DNA from: Candidatus Hydrogenedentota bacterium | GTDB taxonomy: Bacteria; Hydrogenedentota; Hydrogenedentia; Hydrogenedentales; SLHB01 | Length of the DNA stretch: 10,217 nucleotides | Assembly (NCBI GenBank): GCA_029974275.1 | Contig: JARKSN010000272.1 | Location: 1 to 10,217, forward strand | Direction of reading: 5' to 3' | Shown here: positions 2,028 to 10,217 of the stretch, piece by piece | Position numbering within the stretch: the first letter of the stretch is position 1 | Layout of the letters: each line of letters starts with the position of its first letter | Position numbers and translations under genes: made by a program | Notes under the pieces: generated by a model | Told to the model about the DNA's origin: nothing | Seen by the model: only the letters and a program-made list of their open reading frames with translations | The model's database searches: none

Positions 2028-2268
2028 AGTTCCCTCCCGTATGCTTCGAGCCCGTCCCCTGATTCCCTGGACACGAATGCGCGGCGGACCGACGATGTGT
2101 TTTTCGGGACATGACGCCGATAGCCTCCCTACGCCATCGCTCGCTGGCCCCATCTCCGATGAGGTTGCCCCGACATTCCTCGACGGCCCCCCTCGAGCCT
2201 GAATAAAACGCCTTCCTGCGCGAGGGACGAACGCCATCAAAACCATCTCCGGTTCCATCGGCAATGCT

Positions 2269-2297
2269 AGTCTACCATGTCTATGAAACGGTTGCAA
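2269..2297 (-). promoter_or_regulatory. Putative sigma70 promoter for the leftward genes
   Basis: Minus strand reads TTGCAA (2297-2292), a 17-nt spacer, then TAGACT (2274-2269), with an extended -10 TG (TGgTAGACT). Confidence 0.55.
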
Positions 2298-2322
2298 CGC
2301 ATATGTCGGGTCCGATGAAATC

Positions 2323-2351
2323 GTGCGAAATGCAATGCCGCGCGCTATACT
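2323..2351 (+). promoter_or_regulatory. Putative sigma70 promoter for the GH78 gene
   Basis: GTGCGA (2323-2328), a 17-nt spacer, then TATACT (2346-2351), about 55 nt upstream of the ATG at 2406. Good -10, weak -35. Confidence 0.45.
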
Positions 2352-2405
2352 CCCGTCCGCATCTCTCAACGTGGCGATCGGTTGCACTACAGTCGAGGAG
2401 AGCCC

Positions 2406-5237
2406 ATGAAATTCACGGCAAAATGGATTTGGAAGAAACAGGCGAATTACAACGCGTACAACCAGACGATTCTGGCGCGCCGCACGTTCCATGCCCCGCG
2501 CGTGCGGGAGGCGACCGTTGCGATCGCGGCGGACAGCTTTTATAGGTTGTACATCAACGGCGAGTGGGTGAACGACGGCCCCTGTCGCAGTTGGCCCAAG
2601 CATTACCAATATGACGTTATTGATGTGACGCCGTATCTGCGCATAGGGGACAACGAGGCGTTGATCGTGGCGCGCTATTTCGGCGCGGGCACGTTTCATC
2701 AGGTTCCGCAGCAAGCCGGCCTTCTCGCCCAGTTCGATATCGCGCCGGAAAAGGGGAAGCCTATTGTCGTCGGGACGGACGCCTCCTGGCAGGTCGCCGA
2801 GGCCGAGGGGTGGGCGCGCATGACCCCCAAGGTCAGCATCCAGATGGAGCCGTGGGAGCACTACGATGCACGGCGCGCCCAGACGGCCCGTTTCGGCCCC
2901 GCAGCCGAATTGTTTGCGGCGGATCAAGGCCCGTGGAAAGACCTCAACCCGCGCGATGTCGCACTCCTTACGCGACAGCCCTTCGCCCTCAAACGCTTTC
3001 ACGGCGCGAACGTCGTGCGGCCCAGAACTCTAGGCCCCACTTTCCTCACCGCACACATGTTGCATCCCGGTCTCGTCGAGGCGAACCATTCCTGCAGCAT
3101 GGCCCACGCGCTGGCGACGACGATCGTCGCGAAAAGAACAGGGACAGTGACCCTGGATTTCCCATTCCACGACGTGACGGTCAATGGATCCGCGGGCAAG
3201 AACGGAGTGTTTCGCGTCAAGGCGGGACGCAACCTGCTGTTCGCCGCCTATCGCGTCGTCTGTACGCATGACAAGGACGCCCACATCCGTTCGCTTCAAC
3301 TGGGCGGCGCCTCCCTTGAAAATCCGTTAACCGGCAGGCGCGACATGCCGTGGTGCTATGCTACGCTTCCGGAGACCGCCTACGTCGGCAACGACATGAT
3401 TTTCATGGGGCATAAAGACCCTGTTCGGGATGACGTCGAGGTTGCAGCGAAGAGGAGGCTGGAAGAATGGCGCGCCGCGATTCATGACGAATCCACCTTT
3501 AAGACCGTCACGAAAGGCGCGGCGAAACCTGTGCCGCGCGACTGCTTCTTCACCGAGGACGCCGCGCTCGATTTCTTTGCCCGCGACCCGATTGCCCCGG
3601 CGCACAGCCTGATCGCTTCGCCGGAAGCCTTGATGCACGATACGCCTGAAGCTACGGTCGTGAAACCGTCGCGCGACGGCGATATTGAATTGGCCTATGA
3701 TTTCGGCGAGCAGACCTGCGGCTACTATAGTCTTGACATCAGCGCGCCCGCAGGCACGATTGTCGATATCTTTTCACTCGAGTACATCTCCGACGACGGC
3801 GCAGTCCAACTTCCGTGGGGCAACCGAAACGGGATGCGGTATGTCTGTCGTGAAGGCCGCAATCAGTTCGTCTCGTTGAGGCGGCGAGCGGGCCGCTACG
3901 TCTTCATCACGCTGCGTGCTATGACCGGGCCTGTAGAATTGCGCAAGGTGTCGTTGATCGAGTCCACGTATCCGGTCAACCACGCAGGCAGTTTCGCGTG
4001 CAGCGATCCGCATCTCGACAGGATCTGGGAGATCAGCGCCCGCACGTTGAAGCTCTGCATGGAAGACACCTTCACCGATTGCCCGCTCTACGAGCAGACC
4101 CTCTGGGTGGGCGATGCGCGCAATGAGGCCCTCTTCGCGATGACGGCCTTTGGTGCGGAAGACCTTGCCAAACGTTGTGCGACCTTGACGGCGCAGTCGC
4201 TGGACCTCTTTCCGATGGTCGGATGCCAAGTGCCTTCGGCGTGGGAGTGCATTCTTCCCGCGTGGAGTTTCCTGTGGGGAATTTCCGTGTGGGACTGCTA
4301 CTTCTACAGCGGCGACGAGAAGTTCTTGCGGAAAATGTGGCGGTATGTGAAGGCGAATCTCAAGGGCACGGAGAGATTGTGCGCAGACAAGGGCCTCTTT
4401 AGCGCTCCTTACTGGAATCTGCTGGAATGGGCCGGAAACGACGATAACCACCGAACTGTCATTCACAACAATCTGTTGATTGTCGGCGCAATCGATGCCG
4501 CGTTGAAGTGCGCCGTCGTCTTGAAAGACGCCGCGACGCAGAAATGGTTGCGGGCGTTTCGCGCGCGAATCATCAAGGCGACGACTGCCTATTGGGACAC
4601 GCGCAAACGCGCCTACCCCGACAGTATCCACGAGGATGGGACGATTAGCCCCGTTACCTCGCAGCATACGAGCATGCTCGCACTCCTGCACGACGTGATT
4701 CCGGAAAAGGATCGCAAGCTTGCGCTGAAGAACTGCCTGACGCCGCCGGAGGGAATGATCCGGATCGCATCGGGCTTTGCCATGATGTTCATGTATGAGG
4801 CACTGGAAAAAGAAGGCTGCAACGATGACATCCTTGCCTCGATGCGCGAATCGTACTTGCCGATGCTGAAGGCAGGCGCGACAACAGTATGGGAAGTCTT
4901 TCCATCCAGTTGGGCGCGCCCCGAAGGTTTCCCCACCCGCAGTCATTGCCACGCATGGTCGAGTGCGCCGGTCTATTTCCTGAACCGGATAACACTCGGG
5001 ATTCGGCAGACGTCAGTCGGCGGCGCTGCCTATGCGATCAGCCCGTGGGTGAAGGACCTCAATTTCGCAAAGGGTGTGAGCGCGACGTGCAACGGCCCCG
5101 TGTCTGTTCGTTGGGAGAAGAACGAAAAGAATCTTGCCGTGATTGCCTCGGCGCCTGTGGGCGTGAAACTGAAGTTCGTGCGCAATGAGACGCACCGGGG
5201 GATGACCATCACGTTTAACGGGAAAGTTGTTCGTTAG
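2406..5237 (+). CDS. GH78 family (alpha-L-rhamnosidase-like) glycoside hydrolase, 943 aa, no signal peptide
   Basis: SD GAGGAG at 2395-2400 before ATG 2406. N-terminal AKWIW...ADSFYRLYINGEWV..GP...YDVIDVTPYL; YDFGEQ; GSFACSDPHLDRIW; catalytic-domain motifs DCPLYEQTLWVGDAR, GATTVWE and SHCHAWS; C-terminal GPVSVRW. Confidence 0.9.
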   Translation: MKFTAKWIWKKQANYNAYNQTILARRTFHAPRVREATVAIAADSFYRLYINGEWVNDGPCRSWPKHYQYDVIDVTPYLRIGDNEALIVARYFGAGTFHQVPQQAGLLAQFDIAPEKGKPIVVGTDASWQVAEAEGWARMTPKVSIQMEPWEHYDARRAQTARFGPAAELFAADQGPWKDLNPRDVALLTRQPFALKRFHGANVVRPRTLGPTFLTAHMLHPGLVEANHSCSMAHALATTIVAKRTGTVTLDFPFHDVTVNGSAGKNGVFRVKAGRNLLFAAYRVVCTHDKDAHIRSLQLGGASLENPLTGRRDMPWCYATLPETAYVGNDMIFMGHKDPVRDDVEVAAKRRLEEWRAAIHDESTFKTVTKGAAKPVPRDCFFTEDAALDFFARDPIAPAHSLIASPEALMHDTPEATVVKPSRDGDIELAYDFGEQTCGYYSLDISAPAGTIVDIFSLEYISDDGAVQLPWGNRNGMRYVCREGRNQFVSLRRRAGRYVFITLRAMTGPVELRKVSLIESTYPVNHAGSFACSDPHLDRIWEISARTLKLCMEDTFTDCPLYEQTLWVGDARNEALFAMTAFGAEDLAKRCATLTAQSLDLFPMVGCQVPSAWECILPAWSFLWGISVWDCYFYSGDEKFLRKMWRYVKANLKGTERLCADKGLFSAPYWNLLEWAGNDDNHRTVIHNNLLIVGAIDAALKCAVVLKDAATQKWLRAFRARIIKATTAYWDTRKRAYPDSIHEDGTISPVTSQHTSMLALLHDVIPEKDRKLALKNCLTPPEGMIRIASGFAMMFMYEALEKEGCNDDILASMRESYLPMLKAGATTVWEVFPSSWARPEGFPTRSHCHAWSSAPVYFLNRITLGIRQTSVGGAAYAISPWVKDLNFAKGVSATCNGPVSVRWEKNEKNLAVIASAPVGVKLKFVRNETHRGMTITFNGKVVR

Positions 5238-6168
5238 CAGTCGTAAGAGTTGGCCCAACAATAAGGCGGATTGCCTTGGGGATAAGCGAAATCTCCAGCG
5301 GCAATCCGCCAGGTTGTTCTCCGTCGATGTTGACGAGGACATTGCTGTCCGAGCGCGCGGTGATATGTTTGGCGCGGATGTACCGCACTTTGTCGACGCG
5401 ACGGTGCAGGCCGCCGAGATAGACCTTGGGGAGATTGACGAACGACTCGATTTTTCCGACGTCGCCGATGACGTAGACATCAAAAAGGCCGTTGTCCAAC
5501 TGTGCAAAGGGCGCGACGTGCATGCCGCCGCCGTAGTATTGGCCCTTTGCGACGATGATGTTGCTGAACACGCCGCGCAACGGCTCGCCGTCGAAAGTCA
5601 GTTCCATCTCTGCGTTCGTATGGGTCGCGATGGCGGTGAGCACGCCCCATAGAAACGACGCAAACCCGCCGAAGAACTTGCTGGATGCATTCACGCGCCG
5701 CACGACTTCGCCACCGATCCCAAAATCGGTGATGTTCATAAAGTGGCGTGTCTGTGTTGTGCCATCGCTCGCGCGGAATCGCACGCGCCCAACGTCGACT
5801 GCTTTCAAGGTTGCAGTGCGAAGCGCCTGAATCGCGGCGGGGCCCTTCGGTATCCGTACCGTGCGCACAAAGTCGCCGCCGGTCCCAAATGGAATGAACC
5901 CCAAAATCGCATCGGGCCGCACCAGCGCCGCGCCATCAAAAAAACCGTTCAACACCTCATTGTGCGTGCCGTCGCCACCGGCACTCACGATGCGCTCGCA
6001 CCCCGACCGCAACGCCGCTCGCGCGAGCTCGCATGCATGCCCGCGGCGTTCGGTGCGCAACACCTCGCAATTTCCCAACGCCTCACGCACCACGGGTTCC
6101 AGTCGGGGCCACTCGCGCCTCAATCGGCCATTTGCCGCAGCAGGATTGATGATGATGGCGGTTTTCAT
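5215..6168 (-). CDS. Diacylglycerol kinase family lipid kinase (YegS/Rv2252/BmrU-like), 317 aa
   Basis: Motifs INPAAANG, GGDGT..EV.NG, IPFGTGGDF, DVG, YYGGG, DNGLFDV and IDGE. Start placed at ATG 6168 (MKTAIIINP) because the ORF-track extension to 6213 lies in a palindromic repeat. The 3' end overlaps the convergent GH78 gene by 23 nt. Confidence 0.9.
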   Translation of the reverse strand: MKTAIIINPAAANGRLRREWPRLEPVVREALGNCEVLRTERRGHACELARAALRSGCERIVSAGGDGTHNEVLNGFFDGAALVRPDAILGFIPFGTGGDFVRTVRIPKGPAAIQALRTATLKAVDVGRVRFRASDGTTQTRHFMNITDFGIGGEVVRRVNASSKFFGGFASFLWGVLTAIATHTNAEMELTFDGEPLRGVFSNIIVAKGQYYGGGMHVAPFAQLDNGLFDVYVIGDVGKIESFVNLPKVYLGGLHRRVDKVRYIRAKHITARSDSNVLVNIDGEQPGGLPLEISLIPKAIRLIVGPTLTTANEQLSR

Positions 6169-6179
6169 GATTTTGGAAA

Positions 6180-6329
6180 TTGGGGAACCCTTCTTGGAAG
6201 AAGGGTTCCCCAAACCCCTCCCAAGAACTTTTCAGTGGCTCCGCTGGACCGACCACGGAGTGCGAAGCCGGTAAAAGTTTCTAGAAAGGGGTCTGGGGAA
6301 AACCTCTTTTCAAAGAGGTTTTCCCCAGA
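6180..6329. repeat. REP/REPIN-like doublet: two related hairpin units in inverted orientation around a 40-nt spacer
   Basis: Perfect 16-bp IR (6180-6195/6198-6213, TTGGGGAACCCTTCTT) and perfect 18-bp IR (6292-6309/6312-6329, TCTGGGGAAAACCTCTTT). The units 6180-6232 (reverse complement) and 6273-6329 share the pattern AAAAGTT..AGGGGT(C/T)TGGGGAA...TTCCCCA. Confidence 0.8.
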
Positions 6330-6333
6330 TGTC

Positions 6334-7764
6334 CTATACCCTCACATCCGATTTCTTGCCCAATGCGTTTTGATATCGTTCCAATACCGGTTTGATGTCG
6401 TTCTCGACAAATTCGATGACTTGTTGCGGGGCGCGCCCGACGAACTCGCGCATATCGAGGACTGCGTTGATTTCATCGCGCGTCATGCCGATGGCCGGAT
6501 CGCCTGCGAGGCGGTCGAGCAAGTCGTTGTCCTTGCCCTCATCCTTGACGGCGGTGGCAGCGGCGTGACTGTGCATGCGGATGACTTCGTGCAACTCCTG
6601 ACGATCGCCGCCGCGCTTCACGCCCGCCATGATGATGTTCTCCGTCGCCATGAACGGCAGCTCCGCCATCAGGTGCTTCTCGATCACTTTTGGATGCACG
6701 ACGGGGTCTTCAATGATGCTCAAGTACAGGTTCAACACACCATCCGCCGCGAGGAAGGCTTCCGGCAAACTGAGACGCCGGATCGCGGAATCGTCCAGCG
6801 TGCGTTCAAACCATTGCACCGCCGACGTAAAGCCCGTGTGAATTGGCGCGGCAATGAGGAATCGGCCCAAGGCACACGCGCGCTCGCACCGCATCGGATT
6901 ACGCTTGTACGCCATCGCCGAACTGCCGACCTGCTTCTCGCCGAAGGGCTCTTCGATTTCCTTCAGGTTCTGCAGCAGGCGCATGTCCATGCCGAACTTG
7001 TGCACCGTCTCGCCCAACGCCGCCAACGCGCGCAATACATGTGTATCGACCTTGCGCGGATACGTCTGCCCGGTGACCGGGTAGGCTTTCGCGAAACCCA
7101 ACTTCTCCGCGACGCGTTGATCGAGCTTGCGGCACATCTCGGAATCGTTGGTGAACAACGCCATGAACGACGCCTGCGTGCCGGTCGTCCCTTTCGCGCC
7201 ACGACACCGCAAACGGGCGCGCGCCTCTTCCAAATCTTCGATGTCGAAGAGCAGGTCCTGCGCCCACAAACAAGCGCGCTTGCCCACCGTGACCACCTGC
7301 GCCGGCTGGTAGTGCGTGTACCCGAGCGTGGGGAGGTCTTTCCACTTCATCGCAAAATCGACGAGCTTGGCCAGCACGTTCACCGCTTTCGCGATGAGCA
7401 AGTCCAACCCGTCGCGCATGAGCATGAGATCCGTGTTGTCCGTGACATAACAACTCGTCGCGCCGAGGTGGATGATCGGTTTCGCGGATGGTGCAACAAG
7501 TCCATAAGCATGGATATGTGCCATCACATCGTGCCGTGTTTCCCGCTCGAAGGCCTCCGCCGTCGCGAAATCGATGTCCTCGACATGCGCACGCATCTCA
7601 TCCAACTGCGCGTCCGTGATCGACAGCCCCAACTCCTGCTCCGCCTCGGCCAACGCGATCCAACACCTGCGCCACGTCGAGAATTTCTTCTGCGGACTCC
7701 ACAGTTGGATCATTTCCTTTGTTGCAACACGCTGTACAAGCGGACTGACATATTCGGTGGTCAT
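6334..7764 (-). CDS. purB: Adenylosuccinate lyase (ADSL/ADE13-like subtype), 476 aa
   Basis: Fumarase/ASL superfamily signature GSSAMAYKRNP; RHDVMAH, IHLGATS, GYTHYQPAQ, RGAKGTTGTQAS, TGQTYPRK and QWFERTLDDSA. ATG 7764 is preceded by SD AGAGGA. Confidence 0.96.
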   Translation of the reverse strand: MTTEYVSPLVQRVATKEMIQLWSPQKKFSTWRRCWIALAEAEQELGLSITDAQLDEMRAHVEDIDFATAEAFERETRHDVMAHIHAYGLVAPSAKPIIHLGATSCYVTDNTDLMLMRDGLDLLIAKAVNVLAKLVDFAMKWKDLPTLGYTHYQPAQVVTVGKRACLWAQDLLFDIEDLEEARARLRCRGAKGTTGTQASFMALFTNDSEMCRKLDQRVAEKLGFAKAYPVTGQTYPRKVDTHVLRALAALGETVHKFGMDMRLLQNLKEIEEPFGEKQVGSSAMAYKRNPMRCERACALGRFLIAAPIHTGFTSAVQWFERTLDDSAIRRLSLPEAFLAADGVLNLYLSIIEDPVVHPKVIEKHLMAELPFMATENIIMAGVKRGGDRQELHEVIRMHSHAAATAVKDEGKDNDLLDRLAGDPAIGMTRDEINAVLDMREFVGRAPQQVIEFVENDIKPVLERYQNALGKKSDVRV

Positions 7765-7787
7765 CTCAGACAATTCCTCTAGTCTTT

Positions 7788-7834
7788 GTAGCGCCCGGTC
7801 TCCGTGCCGGGCGGTCTTAAACTTTTTCGTGAAT
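7788..7834 (+). repeat. Left arm: GTAG-type REP-like palindrome plus tail
   Basis: GTAG followed by hairpin CGCCCGG-TCTCCGTG-CCGGGCG. 42/47 identical to the reverse complement of 8380-8426. A truncated inverted copy (CGCCCGGC) follows at 7837-7844. Confidence 0.85.
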
Positions 7835-8329
7835 CGCGCCCGGCTGTTCAATCTCCGAGCGATTCACGCAATTCAATTCGTCGAAAACTCGCAACAACCT
7901 GCCATTGGACGAAGCAAAGGAATTAGTGTTCGCCCTATATAGATGATGTTGCAGAAGGTCAGCGTCCTTTAGCGTCTCGCAAAGCGGACTGGTTCCCGTG
8001 TTTTCCTTGTCACTGTGTTCTTCGATTGCGCAGCAAACTGCATTGATTTCGTCCAAGGTGAAGGCAGAAGTTTCCTGCATGATAGCCTTGGCTCTCAATG
8101 CGCTCAAGCGGGCATGATTTTCGGAAGTCCCAGTCATATAAGAAGAGAGGTCATGCAGCATGCCTGCCACACCGCACATCGACGGCTCCAGGCCACGTCT
8201 GCCTGCTAGCAGCACGGCAGTCTGTGCAACACCGTACAGGTGCACAAAACCGCACCGAGCCGCTTCTTTGTCTTCCAGTGCCCAAAGAATACAGTCTACC
8301 CGCTGTCTGATCTTTTCAAGACGATTCAC
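7817..8329 (-). CDS. HD-domain metal-dependent phosphohydrolase, about 170 aa
   Basis: H30 (FVHLYGV), H59-D60 (GMLHD), H72, H105 (AIEEHS) and D122-A-D124. Start placed at GTG 8329, 7 nt after SD AAGGA; ATG 8335 is the alternative but only 1 nt from the SD. Hand count gives 245/480 G+C (51%) for 7861-8340. Confidence 0.85.
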   Translation of the reverse strand: MNRLEKIRQRVDCILWALEDKEAARCGFVHLYGVAQTAVLLAGRRGLEPSMCGVAGMLHDLSSYMTGTSENHARLSALRAKAIMQETSAFTLDEINAVCCAIEEHSDKENTGTSPLCETLKDADLLQHHLYRANTNSFASSNGRLLRVFDELNCVNRSEIEQPGAIHEKV

Positions 8330-8379
8330 GAGCATTTCCTTGCTATGCGATAAAGATCGATGTCTCTGTGCCGGATGAA

Positions 8380-8426
8380 ATTCACGAAAAAGCCCAATAC
8401 CGCCCGGCACAGAGACCGGGCGCTAC
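8380..8426 (-). repeat. Right arm: GTAG-type REP-like palindrome plus tail, inverted relative to the left arm
   Basis: Minus strand reads GTAGCGCCCGGTCTCTGTGCCGGGCGGTATTGGGCTTTTTCGTGAAT. A truncated partner copy GTCTCTGTGCCGG at 8362-8374 pairs perfectly (13 bp) with 8404-8416. Confidence 0.85.
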
Positions 8427-8436
8427 GGAATCCAGG

Positions 8437-9114
8437 CTACGGGTTGATGTCTTGAATGGCCAGTTCGAACCTTGATGCCGCCTGTACCGCGCCGACGGCC
8501 GTCACGCCGTTGGTCATCGTTTTGAATACGCCGCTCTGGAAGAGCCCCGCGCACACGTCTGCTGCACTCTTCACGCCGAACGCGTCGTTCTGGTCCTTGT
8601 CGAGTGTATTGCGCTCATACGTGCTGACATAGTAGCACGTACCATTCGCGCCGGATGCCCCACCGATCACCTGCCGCACTTCAATGCCGTCCTTGCGCAC
8701 GACCGCCAACCACCCCGCGCCATCGCCGCGCGTGTCGGCCACGGCCGTGATGCGCGGCGTGTCTAACTGATCCTTCTCATAGTCCAACGCCATCATCGAC
8801 AACGCCAGCGCGTCGCGCACGCCCATGCCCGCGTCGATCTTTTCCGCGATGGGATCGGTTTGGCTGCCGTTGCTGACGACGACCACGCTGCCGTCGCATA
8901 CCACGCGGACGCAGTTGTACGCGATGTACGGGTTCTTCTGCACGTCCAGCTCAAACCCCGGTTTCGGCACGATGCGCACTGCCGTTCCCGCGTCATTCGC
9001 AACGGCCATCCGGTTCGGAAACGACCGGCTCGACACGCGATACCCCGCCGCCCAACGCCCGTCTTCCGTTTTGCCTACCACGACTAACCGGCCCACATAA
9101 ATATCATTTGGCAT
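8437..9114 (-). CDS. purO: Archaeal-type IMP cyclohydrolase, about 225 aa
   Basis: YVGR, YRVSSRSFPNR, NPYIAYNC, VVSNGSQTD and DYEKD..DTPRI match the archaeal PurO family. It lies next to purB. SD GAGAGGG is 7 nt from ATG 9114 and 1 nt from ATG 9120, so 9114 is preferred. Confidence 0.88.
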   Translation of the reverse strand: MPNDIYVGRLVVVGKTEDGRWAAGYRVSSRSFPNRMAVANDAGTAVRIVPKPGFELDVQKNPYIAYNCVRVVCDGSVVVVSNGSQTDPIAEKIDAGMGVRDALALSMMALDYEKDQLDTPRITAVADTRGDGAGWLAVVRKDGIEVRQVIGGASGANGTCYYVSTYERNTLDKDQNDAFGVKSAADVCAGLFQSGVFKTMTNGVTAVGAVQAASRFELAIQDINP

Positions 9115-9147
9115 GCGCATACCCTCTCAGCCGTTCTGGATTCACCC

Positions 9148-9221
9148 AAAAGAAAAAAGGCACAAAGGCGCCCGAAGGAAGACAAGAATCTTCCGTGTTT
9201 CTCACAGTGCCTTTGTGCCTT
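9148..9221 (-). terminator. Long hairpin plus U-tract after gnd; possible terminator or a third repeat type
   Basis: 15-bp IR with one mismatch (9157-9171 AAGGCACAAAGGCGC / 9207-9221 GTGCCTTTGTGCCTT) and an inner 6-bp stem GGAAGA/TCTTCC (9177-9182/9189-9194). On the minus strand it runs into TTTTTTCTTTT. The 35-nt loop is atypical for an intrinsic terminator. Confidence 0.45.
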
Positions 9222-9244
9222 CGCGCCAATTTCTTTTCTCTTCC

Positions 9245-10217
9245 TTATTCATCCAGCCACTGATAGTGGAAGAACTGCCCGCGCGGTTTGTCGACGCGCT
9301 CGTAGGTGTGTGCGCCGAAGAAATCGCGTTGCGCTTGGAGCATGTTCGCCGGGAGTTGTTCCGAGCGGTAGGCGTCGTAGTACGAGAGCGCCGAGCTGAA
9401 CGCGGGCACCGGCACGCCGTGCATTACAGCCGTCGCCAACACGCGCCGCCACGCCGGTTGCGCTTTGTCGATGACGCCCTTGAAGAACGGCGTCAACAGC
9501 AGATTCACGCAATTCGGGTCAGCGGCGAAGGCCTCCTTGATGCGCTCCAAGAACCGCGCACGGATGATGCAGCCGCCGCGCCACATCAGGGCGATATCGC
9601 CGAAGTTCAGGTCCCAGTGGTATTCCTTCGCGGCATAGCGCATGAGCTGGAAGCCCTGCGCGTACGAGCAAATCTTCGATGCGTACAACGCCTGCTCGAT
9701 GTCGTCGATGAAGGCCTTCTTGTCGCCCGTGAATTTCGCGTCCGGTCCCGTCAAAATCTTCGACGCCGCAACGCGCTCCTCTTTCACCGCCGACAGACAC
9801 CGCGCAAATACGGCCTCCGCGATGGTCGGCGCGGGCGTGCCCATATCGAGCGCGCTGGCCGACGTCCACTTGCCCGTGCCTTTCTGGCCCGCCGTGTCGA
9901 GAATGACGTCTACCATCGGTTTGCCGGTTTCGGGGTCGATCTTCGCGAGAATTTGCTGCGTGATATCGATGAGGTAGCTGTCCAGTTCGCCCTCGTTCCA
10001 CCGCTTGAACACCTCGTGCTGTTCCGGCGCGCTGAGACCGAGGACTGTTTTCATCAACCAGTACGCCTCGCAGATCAACTGCATGTCGCCGTATTCGATG
10101 CCGTTGTGGACCATCTTGACGTAATGGCCCGCGCCGTCCGGTCCGACGTACTGACAGCACGGCGACCCGTCGGCGACCTTGGCCGCAATCGCCTGGAACA
10201 TCGGCTTGATGCGTTCC
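9245..10217 (-). CDS. gnd: 6-phosphogluconate dehydrogenase, decarboxylating, long form (5' end runs off the right edge)
   Basis: [39 protein letters not shown] and [14 protein letters not shown]. The frame stays open past 10201 (ERIKP-MFQ) to the window edge, so the ORF-track Met is internal. Confidence 0.97.

Follow-up and report, generated by a model that had tools for sequence, protein, structure and literature searches.

Does a palindromic repeat on either side of a gene carry that gene from place to place, or does it mark the point at which the gene came in or went out? This question is raised by a contig of 10,217 bp from Candidatus Hydrogenedentota bacterium (GCA_029974275.1, JARKSN010000272.1; C71 below), which is taken as a whole and called the window here. 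On its minus strand, purO, a small HD-domain gene, and purB follow one another head to tail, and the HD-domain gene is enclosed by inverted arms of the repetitive extragenic palindromic (REP) class. The first-pass annotation of this DNA had read the block from REP to REP as a candidate cassette, mobilized by a REP-associated tyrosine transposase (RAYT) and derived from a REPIN, an inverted REP doublet that forms a hairpin. By comparing the occupied site with an allele that lacks the gene, we found that a REP hairpin is the breakpoint at which the foreign gene was gained or lost and that part of the REPIN is duplicated there in the inverted sense. The evidence comes from a single locus in a fragmented metagenome-assembled genome (4.38 Mb in 342 contigs, 60.5% GC), set beside 40 relatives at the family and order levels, which together with the host make 41 genomes.

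Two states of the purO-purB junction

A scan with purO yielded two metagenome contigs, L124 and L125, in which purO is followed by one REPIN and then by purB, and the HD gene is absent. The two are identical to each other at the junction and across the purB stretch compared. Their purO and purB proteins are 95.5% and 96.0% identical to those of the window, and at the DNA level the identity falls to 93.2% (purO side) and 90.0% (purB side). Empty or REPIN-only junctions in relatives had been envisaged in the first-pass annotation, and these contigs carry the REPIN-only form. In this allele, the purO stop is followed by 5 nt, a REP, a 23-nt spacer, the inverted REP, 22 nt, and the purB ATG, a spacer of 102 nt in all that includes an intact 75-nt REPIN. 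The REPIN is predicted to fold into a perfect 26-bp hairpin (-38.3 kcal/mol, z -11.4). Excision of 7788-8426 on paper leaves 10 + 23 = 33 nt, with the GAGGA ahead of purB outside the arms. The earlier arithmetic, with its purB ribosome-binding site beyond the element, is correct to this extent, but the actual empty site is the 102-nt spacer with its REPIN.

BLAST alignment of the two alleles located the ends of the difference. Window positions 4881-7844 and 8401-10217 are colinear with L124, and the two aligned segments overlap by 8 nt on L124 (1967-1974). Between them lies a 556-bp indel (7845-8400) that is present in the window and absent from L124 and L125, with no match between the flanks except the repeat itself. 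Its shared edge is an 8-nt direct repeat, CGCCCGGC on the plus strand, with one copy at 7837-7844 and, as read from the window sequence and the BLAST segments, the other at 8401-8408. Both of its breakpoints are located in the 3' stem of the purO-side REP, at this direct repeat and not at the outer GTAG ends, and the outer REPs remain in the empty allele. The indel ends do not coincide with those of a unit bounded by the outer REP ends. The proposal that the 639-bp block from REP to REP is the mobile unit finds no support on this point, as the alleles differ by 556 bp that end inside one REP.

The arms were delimited by a repeat search as 57-nt inverted repeats (7788-7844 and 8370-8426) that are 84% complementary and 525 nt apart; in the 47-nt version described earlier, 42 of 47 positions are identical. 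The outer end of either arm consists of GTAG and the hairpin CGCCCGG-N8-CCGGGCG, and the HD-domain ORF on the minus strand is the one gene between them. The original description of inverted GTAG-hairpin arms around a single gene was accurate in all but the length of the arms, which reach 57 nt and not 47. Judged by sequence, each arm is an incomplete copy of the resident REPIN, and the two copies are inverted relative to each other. The left arm (7788-7844, minus strand) is the purB-side copy in the ancestral orientation and aligns with the empty-site REPIN from position 19 to position 75 (52/57). It comprises one complete REP (7788-7813, the core of which is the exact consensus), the spacer, and the terminal 8 nt of the other REP. 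The right arm, followed to its full extent (8362-8426, minus strand), is the purO-side copy in flipped orientation and corresponds without gaps to positions 1-65 of the flipped empty-site REPIN (58/65). Within it lie one complete REP (8401-8426), the spacer in inverted form, and 13 nt of the second REP, the final 10 nt of which are gone. The predicted fold of this arm has a stem of 13 bp (-15.6 kcal/mol, z -4.2).

In the purO-to-purB direction, the occupied allele starts with the flipped REPIN, short of 10 nt at its end. A 26-nt leader containing AAGGAA and the HD-homologous ORF come next, then ∼20 nt that make up a degenerate REP-like hairpin, and finally the resident REPIN from position 19 onward. 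The degenerate hairpin (7838-7868, minus strand) has a 10-bp stem made of CGTGAATCGC and its complement in the spacer, and it now encodes the residues VNRSEIEQPGA; the DNA fold computed for 7788-7868 has -21.7 kcal/mol (z -4.2). In the spacer of the purB-side copy, TTT stands where the empty allele has ACC. The HD-homologous segment has a direct copy of a 9-10-nt spacer motif, CGTGAATCG, at either end (8330-8322 and 7868-7860), which may mark microhomology used in joining; the copy at the 5' end coincides in part with the (M)NR codons, which homologues have too. A search of Rfam with the REP returned a single, sub-threshold match to CRISPR-DR29 (20.2 versus 39 bits).

Structure, origin, and age of the HD gene

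The gene between the arms encodes an HD-domain phosphohydrolase of 172 amino acids when read from the ATG at 8335 (7817-8335, minus strand; PF01966, E 1.1e-8, 35.8 bits against a cut-off of 22). The native start is probably the GTG at 8329, which gives MNRLE as in homologues and has AAGGAA 6 nt before it. The TAA stop (7817-7819) lies inside the left arm, and the last nine codons together with the stop derive from the REPIN spacer. Homologues are mostly ∼154 amino acids long and end ∼17 residues sooner; in an alignment with 16 of them, residues beyond ∼155 have no counterpart in most. H61, D62, H74, H107, D124, and D126 are invariant in the 17 sequences, and H32 is nearly so (at least 90%). 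The AlphaFold model predicts a helical protein (mean pLDDT 86.6) with its last ∼17 residues disordered. The nearest solved fold is that of an uncharacterised HD hydrolase, 2pq7 (TM 0.62), and there is a profile match to YedJ; Foldseek returned nothing from the PDB at E ≤ 0.001. The cargo proper comprises 517 nt (7845-8361, minus strand; GC 0.505), namely the leader, the HD-homologous ORF, and the ∼20 nt that follow it.

The composition of this ORF sets it apart from its neighbours, as the first-pass annotation had stated for purO: its GC content is 0.51, compared with 0.59 for purB, 0.62 for the whole of purO, and 0.65 for purO positions 8701-8940, and its GC at third codon positions (GC3) is 0.544, compared with 0.769 for purB and 0.794 for purO. 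Among the 40 relatives, one gave a weak match to the HD protein (E 2.4e-6, 29% identity) and 39 gave none. Database homologues with 42-54% identity come from Bipolaricaulota, Clostridia, Chloroflexota, Thermotogota, Bacteroidota, and others, and within ∼4 kb on either side of homologues neither purO nor purB was found at any of 80 loci. The low GC3, the lack of a convincing match in relatives, and homologues that never stand near purO or purB together indicate that the HD gene was horizontally acquired and is foreign to this lineage. Used as a single query, the HD protein found no match among the genome contigs or metagenome contigs searched.

A quick maximum-likelihood tree was built from 86 rows, comprising the window protein, 12 database proteins, and 73 of the 80 loci; the other seven loci were left out because the ORF fell outside 120-260 amino acids or the match lay on the opposite strand. 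The window protein belongs to a mixed clade, in which it has a long branch (0.83) beside an unnamed protein (SH-aLRT 90, unstarred), and its neighbours are Chloroflexota, Bipolaricaulota, Thermotogota, and unnamed metagenome rows. A 113-amino acid database fragment matches the window HD protein exactly, save for a deletion of 7 residues, and has the same REPIN-derived tail.

No promoter-like site was predicted between the right arm and the HD start codon, and no terminator-like site was predicted at the arms. Since both predictions were negative, expression of the HD gene most likely depends on read-through from purO, which agrees with the earlier suggestion that the gene had come under the transcription of the host operon.

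To date the occupied state, we examined four public runs as assembled contigs, three of which hold the window's own strain and one of which (X20) holds a relative. Contigs of the window strain break at REPs in the three runs. In X20, one contig covers 6803-7813 with 109 differences, and another covers 7789-9108 with 77 differences and one gap; by its coverage of the window, the latter runs uninterrupted through the left REP, the HD gene, the right REP, and purO. The two contigs meet only inside the REP, and we infer the link to purB. The same occupied layout very probably exists in the X20 lineage, which is ∼6-11% diverged. In a 433-nt stretch of purB, the three lineages (the window, X20, and L124) lie at similar distances from one another, with 40, 45, and ∼43 differences, and L124 shares 21 of the 40 variants seen in X20. 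One gain of the gene would explain these lineages as well as one loss. No contig with the empty allele was seen in the four runs.

The genes on either side are purB (6334-7764, minus strand), which encodes an adenylosuccinate lyase of 476 amino acids (PF10397 and PF00206; 96% amino acid identity to L124 and L125), and purO (8437-9120, minus strand), which encodes an archaeal-type IMP cyclohydrolase of 227 amino acids (PF07826, E 7.8e-52). purO is present in 37 of the 40 relatives, and purB directly follows it at 18 of the 29 purO loci that were inspected in them. The spacers of 17 of these 18 adjacent loci measure 17-189 nt; the remaining one has 1,146 nt of non-coding repeats. This spacer, in another genus (L010 of G020, positions 2160-3290), is internally repeated, and the junction gathers repeats there as well. 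Elsewhere in the window, a stretch of ∼60 nt within 9236-9330 draws contigs at 30-110x summed depth in all four runs; these contigs are long and otherwise unlike the window, and the stretch is probably a widely conserved or repeated motif within the ORF there.

The REP/RAYT system of the genome and its relatives

The repeats are true REPs, and by every feature tested the locus belongs to the REP/REPIN/RAYT kind. With as many as 4 mismatches allowed, the 26-nt REP core has 96 genomic copies, 48 per strand; 39 of them are exact and another 39 differ at one position. A reversed-pattern control gave 0 matches in each of the 41 genomes. Because 96 copies stand against 0 for the control, the abundance of the core is beyond chance. 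All 39 exact copies and both arms read GTAG-CGCCCGG-N8-CCGGGCG, and 33 of the 96 copies lie within 200 nt of a contig end. Neighbouring REPs mostly form outward-facing inverted doublets of ∼100-120 or ∼140-180 nt, with 20 pairs of 80-260 nt; the larger outward-facing pairs of the genome are this locus (639 nt) and one on C193 (1,979 nt).

A search of the genome with PF01797 marked four places, two of which are complete RAYT genes. RAYT-1 (C268; L115:1402-1908) and RAYT-2 (C195; L116:1306-1932) score 100.9 and 95 bits, respectively, against NF047646 (cut-off 80), and both predicted translations carry a PDHLH motif and a Y shortly before NPV(R/K). RAYT-1 is flanked on C268 by REPs at 122167(-) and 122805(+). 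Both belong to REPINs, and the two REPINs are mutually inverted (REPs at 122019+, 122167-, 122805+, and 122953-). The assignment of the repeats to the REP class with an associated RAYT, made from the window before any search, is borne out by the 96 copies and the two RAYTs, one of them flanked by the same REP. RAYT-2 adjoins two tandem compact REPINs with diverged loops (C195:3441-4100), and the spacer of its REPIN (CCTTTTCGCGAAT) resembles the spacer within the arms of the HD locus.

The REP core also occurs in 10 of the 40 relatives, which belong to other genera, with 63 copies in G011 (22 exact) and 79 in G032. The identical 26-nt REP is retained across several genera of the family, with G011, G019, G005, G008, G009, and G012 among the carriers. 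In G032, which belongs to another family of the order, most of the 79 copies are the variant GTAGCGTCCGG...CCGGACG, with a compensatory pair in the stem.

REPINs are described as short and non-coding. The present genome shares with known REPIN/RAYT systems (PMC3116915, PMC3337134) the GTAG hairpins, the inverted doublets, and single-copy RAYT genes with the same REPs on their flanks, and the REPIN hairpin of the empty allele is of textbook form; what differs is a protein gene around which the REPIN has been split and duplicated in part. In a full-text search, the word 'cargo' was absent from the core REPIN/RAYT papers among the matches listed, which is not proof that such a case is unpublished. 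With the REPtron, or TnpA-REP, arrangement as outlined in PMC3333891 and PMC8266576, the locus shares the order REPIN-gene-REPIN with mutually inverted REPINs, as at the RAYT-1 locus. It differs in having an HD hydrolase in place of a transposase and an indel edge in the 3' stem, whereas the TnpA-REP enzymes characterised in PMC8266576 cut at CT or CA outside the hairpin.

Routes of gain or loss

In our judgement, the REPIN was probably the docking or breakage site for the foreign HD gene and not its vehicle. The event would have started from a purO-purB spacer with a 75-nt REPIN, that is, two inverted GTAG-hairpin REPs around a 23-nt spacer. As our first choice of mechanism, a replication fork would stall or break at the REPIN hairpin, and the nascent end would switch strands inside the palindrome to yield a flipped REPIN copy. 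The end would then pick up foreign DNA and rejoin on the 8-nt homology, through template switching or microhomology-mediated joining. A second choice would be site-specific recombination at the REP; alternatively, the same REP hairpin may have been the site of gene loss in the sister lineage. Afterwards the gene would have become fixed in the operon, with purO read-through, a tail and stop taken from the REPIN spacer, and its HD metal site intact.

Several points weigh against this course. The template-switch step is purely inferred. The recurrence of CGTGAATCG at both ends of the HD-homologous segment is left unaccounted for by the model. With 33 of the 96 REPs near contig ends, the assembly may lack further copies of the arms or the cargo. 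Either allele may be the ancestral one, and two of the three equidistant lineages, the window and X20 but not L124, are occupied. Finally, the purO-side REPIN spacer is ∼82% identical both to the purB-side copy and to the empty allele (the ACC/TTT difference excluded), a divergence that hints that the second REPIN copy predates the split between the window and L124 and so favours a loss in L124.

The last point is shared with an explanation that we hold to be unlikely, in which the HD gene was inserted first, by illegitimate recombination, two REPINs landed beside it later and independently, and deletion between same-sense REPs produced the state of L124 and L125. The purO-side spacer does seem to predate the divergence of the window and L124. 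REPs come to rest between genes, and by our estimate chance would place REPs to either side of about one gene in a genome with ∼55 REP loci. In G011, moreover, 72-nt inverted arms (97%) around 6.1 kb, which we had considered as a cargo-bearing pair and rejected, are two copies of a common dispersed unit (∼20 near-full copies) and bracket resident LexA, OmpA-family, and ECF-sigma genes without signs of cargo. This order of events nevertheless needs three steps, two of them involving a REPIN subfamily found nowhere else in the genome. The deletion must also restore a perfect 26-bp REPIN, and the purB-side REP that it needs as a direct repeat is unrecognisable at 18 of 26 positions, beyond the ∼10% divergence.

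The first-pass annotation preferred a gene cassette borne by a REP or REPIN and excised and inserted by the RAYT, the best-fitting form of which is a circle of REPIN and ORF that recombines with a chromosomal REP, in a manner akin to the use of attC by integron cassettes. Integration of such a circle is expected to give the order found at the occupied site (a REP, an inverted spacer, and a partial REP ahead of the gene; a REP-like hairpin, a spacer, and a REP behind it), and if the DNA between the two same-sense REPs is deleted, the empty allele returns exactly. RAYT-1 likewise lies between a pair of REPINs inverted relative to each other, and the genome has two intact RAYT genes. Apart from the RAYT, three segments of more than 250 nt lie between neighbouring REPs (the HD locus on C71; C193 8258-10236; C298 46020-48080), and all three are low in GC (0.48-0.54). 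Against this, the unit is single-copy: the HD cargo occurs once in the genome, and the extended arm pattern gave 2 matches in the 41 genomes, both at this locus. No other cargo was found between the same arms, the C193 and C298 arms having only the 26-nt REP core in common with those of the HD locus; the ORFs of these two segments have no Pfam match. The check, proposed earlier, of whether other inverted pairs enclose different single genes yielded no example. The inner REPs at the HD locus are truncated or degenerate, the layout is very probably unaltered in a lineage ∼10% diverged, and the indel ends in the stem and not at the CT or CA sites outside the hairpin that are cut by the TnpA-REP studied in PMC8266576.

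No excision or circle joint was found among the assembled contigs of the four runs, where each contig joint either extended no more than 25 nt on the shorter side or corresponded to REP loci elsewhere. Joints that skip 579-587 nt (from 7813-7820 to 8395-8401) were traced to other REP doublets, with a shorter side of at most 25 nt, and a joint from 8426 to 7788 with 14 letters between them is the back-to-back REP pair of contig C336 and not a circle. Single copy, no other cargo, and ends away from the CT/CA sites together make RAYT-mobilised delivery of a REP-borne cassette improbable. What survives of the wider claim that a REP-derived element placed the gene is that a REP took part in the event; delivery as a cassette is conjecture.

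The other REP-bracketed regions have features of their own. C193:8258-11206 (L135) holds two ORFs with a GC content of 0.50-0.54 between outward-facing REPs, followed by five same-sense REPs 241-243 nt apart. C298:44900-48080 (L136) is a low-GC island (minimum 0.40) with one REP inside, one at its edge, and a 485-amino acid ORF without a Pfam match. Across the genome, REPs stand at 5 of 212 edges of low-GC islands against 1.2 expected, under a null that is too lenient as REPs and edges are both intergenic, and the excess counts as a lead at most. In G019, five REP pairs of ∼340 nt were considered as REP-bounded units and set aside, as they sit within a repeat of ∼460 nt that has terminal inverted repeats of its own. 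This repeat (L119-L123, ∼441-900) is present in five copies with ends CAGGGCAATCGCACTAA... and has nested inside it several GTAG-hairpin units that are not all of one type. In appearance it is a composite miniature element assembled from REPs.

Integron cassettes consist of a promoter-less ORF with its own ribosome-binding site and an adjacent imperfect palindrome, and they are transcribed from an upstream host promoter. By analogy, the HD gene would be a promoter-less single ORF with a ribosome-binding site beside a palindrome and expressed from a host promoter, with the differences that the palindrome is a REPIN and the candidate enzyme an HUH nuclease and not a tyrosine recombinase. Neither attC core sites nor IntI came to light, though no search was aimed at them. 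That REPINs act as attachment sites in this manner, a circle of REPIN and promoter-less ORF having been joined to the operon REP by the REP-associated HUH nuclease, is something to which we give little credence.

Least probable is that a REP-targeting IS110-type insertion sequence brought the gene as a passenger module in the manner of ISPpu9/ssr9, for although REPs are well-known insertion-sequence targets (PMC1525189), IS110 elements are reported to insert at a fixed REP position and transposase-less modules to spread via circles (PMC12288879), and the genome has one IS110-family gene (C257:21480-21905, 59.3 bits), that gene is not flanked by split REP halves and no part of the cargo recurs anywhere else in the genome. 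The likeness to the systems of PMC12288879 and PMC1525189, as given there, extends to a REP target, a defined insertion place, and the possibility of a module without transposase; here, however, there is no insertion sequence at the locus and there are no further copies, and part of the REPIN is duplicated in inverted sense, unlike an IS110 insertion. The match on C257 is the only one to an IS110-family transposase in the genome, and its reading frame is seemingly split over two ORFs.

REPINs are regarded as vertically inherited passengers. The new element at this locus is one REPIN that is split and partly duplicated around a foreign operon gene that looks expressed, with an intact REPIN allele for comparison. 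In Pseudomonas, REPs have been proposed as integration sites for single foreign genes without the hallmarks of mobile elements, and the same account places acquired genes mostly in REP-free regions (PMC3390384). The present case differs from the REP deserts described there in that the acquired gene lies within a REPIN and the empty allele is in hand, and the locus would be a worked example of that proposal.

With both states of the site available, the purO-purB junction is a testable case of REP hairpins as points of gene entry or exit without an integrase or insertion sequence. It also extends the range of REP/RAYT systems to a little-studied uncultured phylum, in which a 26-nt REP is kept across genera. 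Substrates for cleavage and strand transfer by the RAYT can be read straight from the two alleles. If REPINs did serve as attachment sites, the REP/RAYT system would be a gene-capture device comparable to integrons, in which loss between same-sense REPs restores a clean REPIN.

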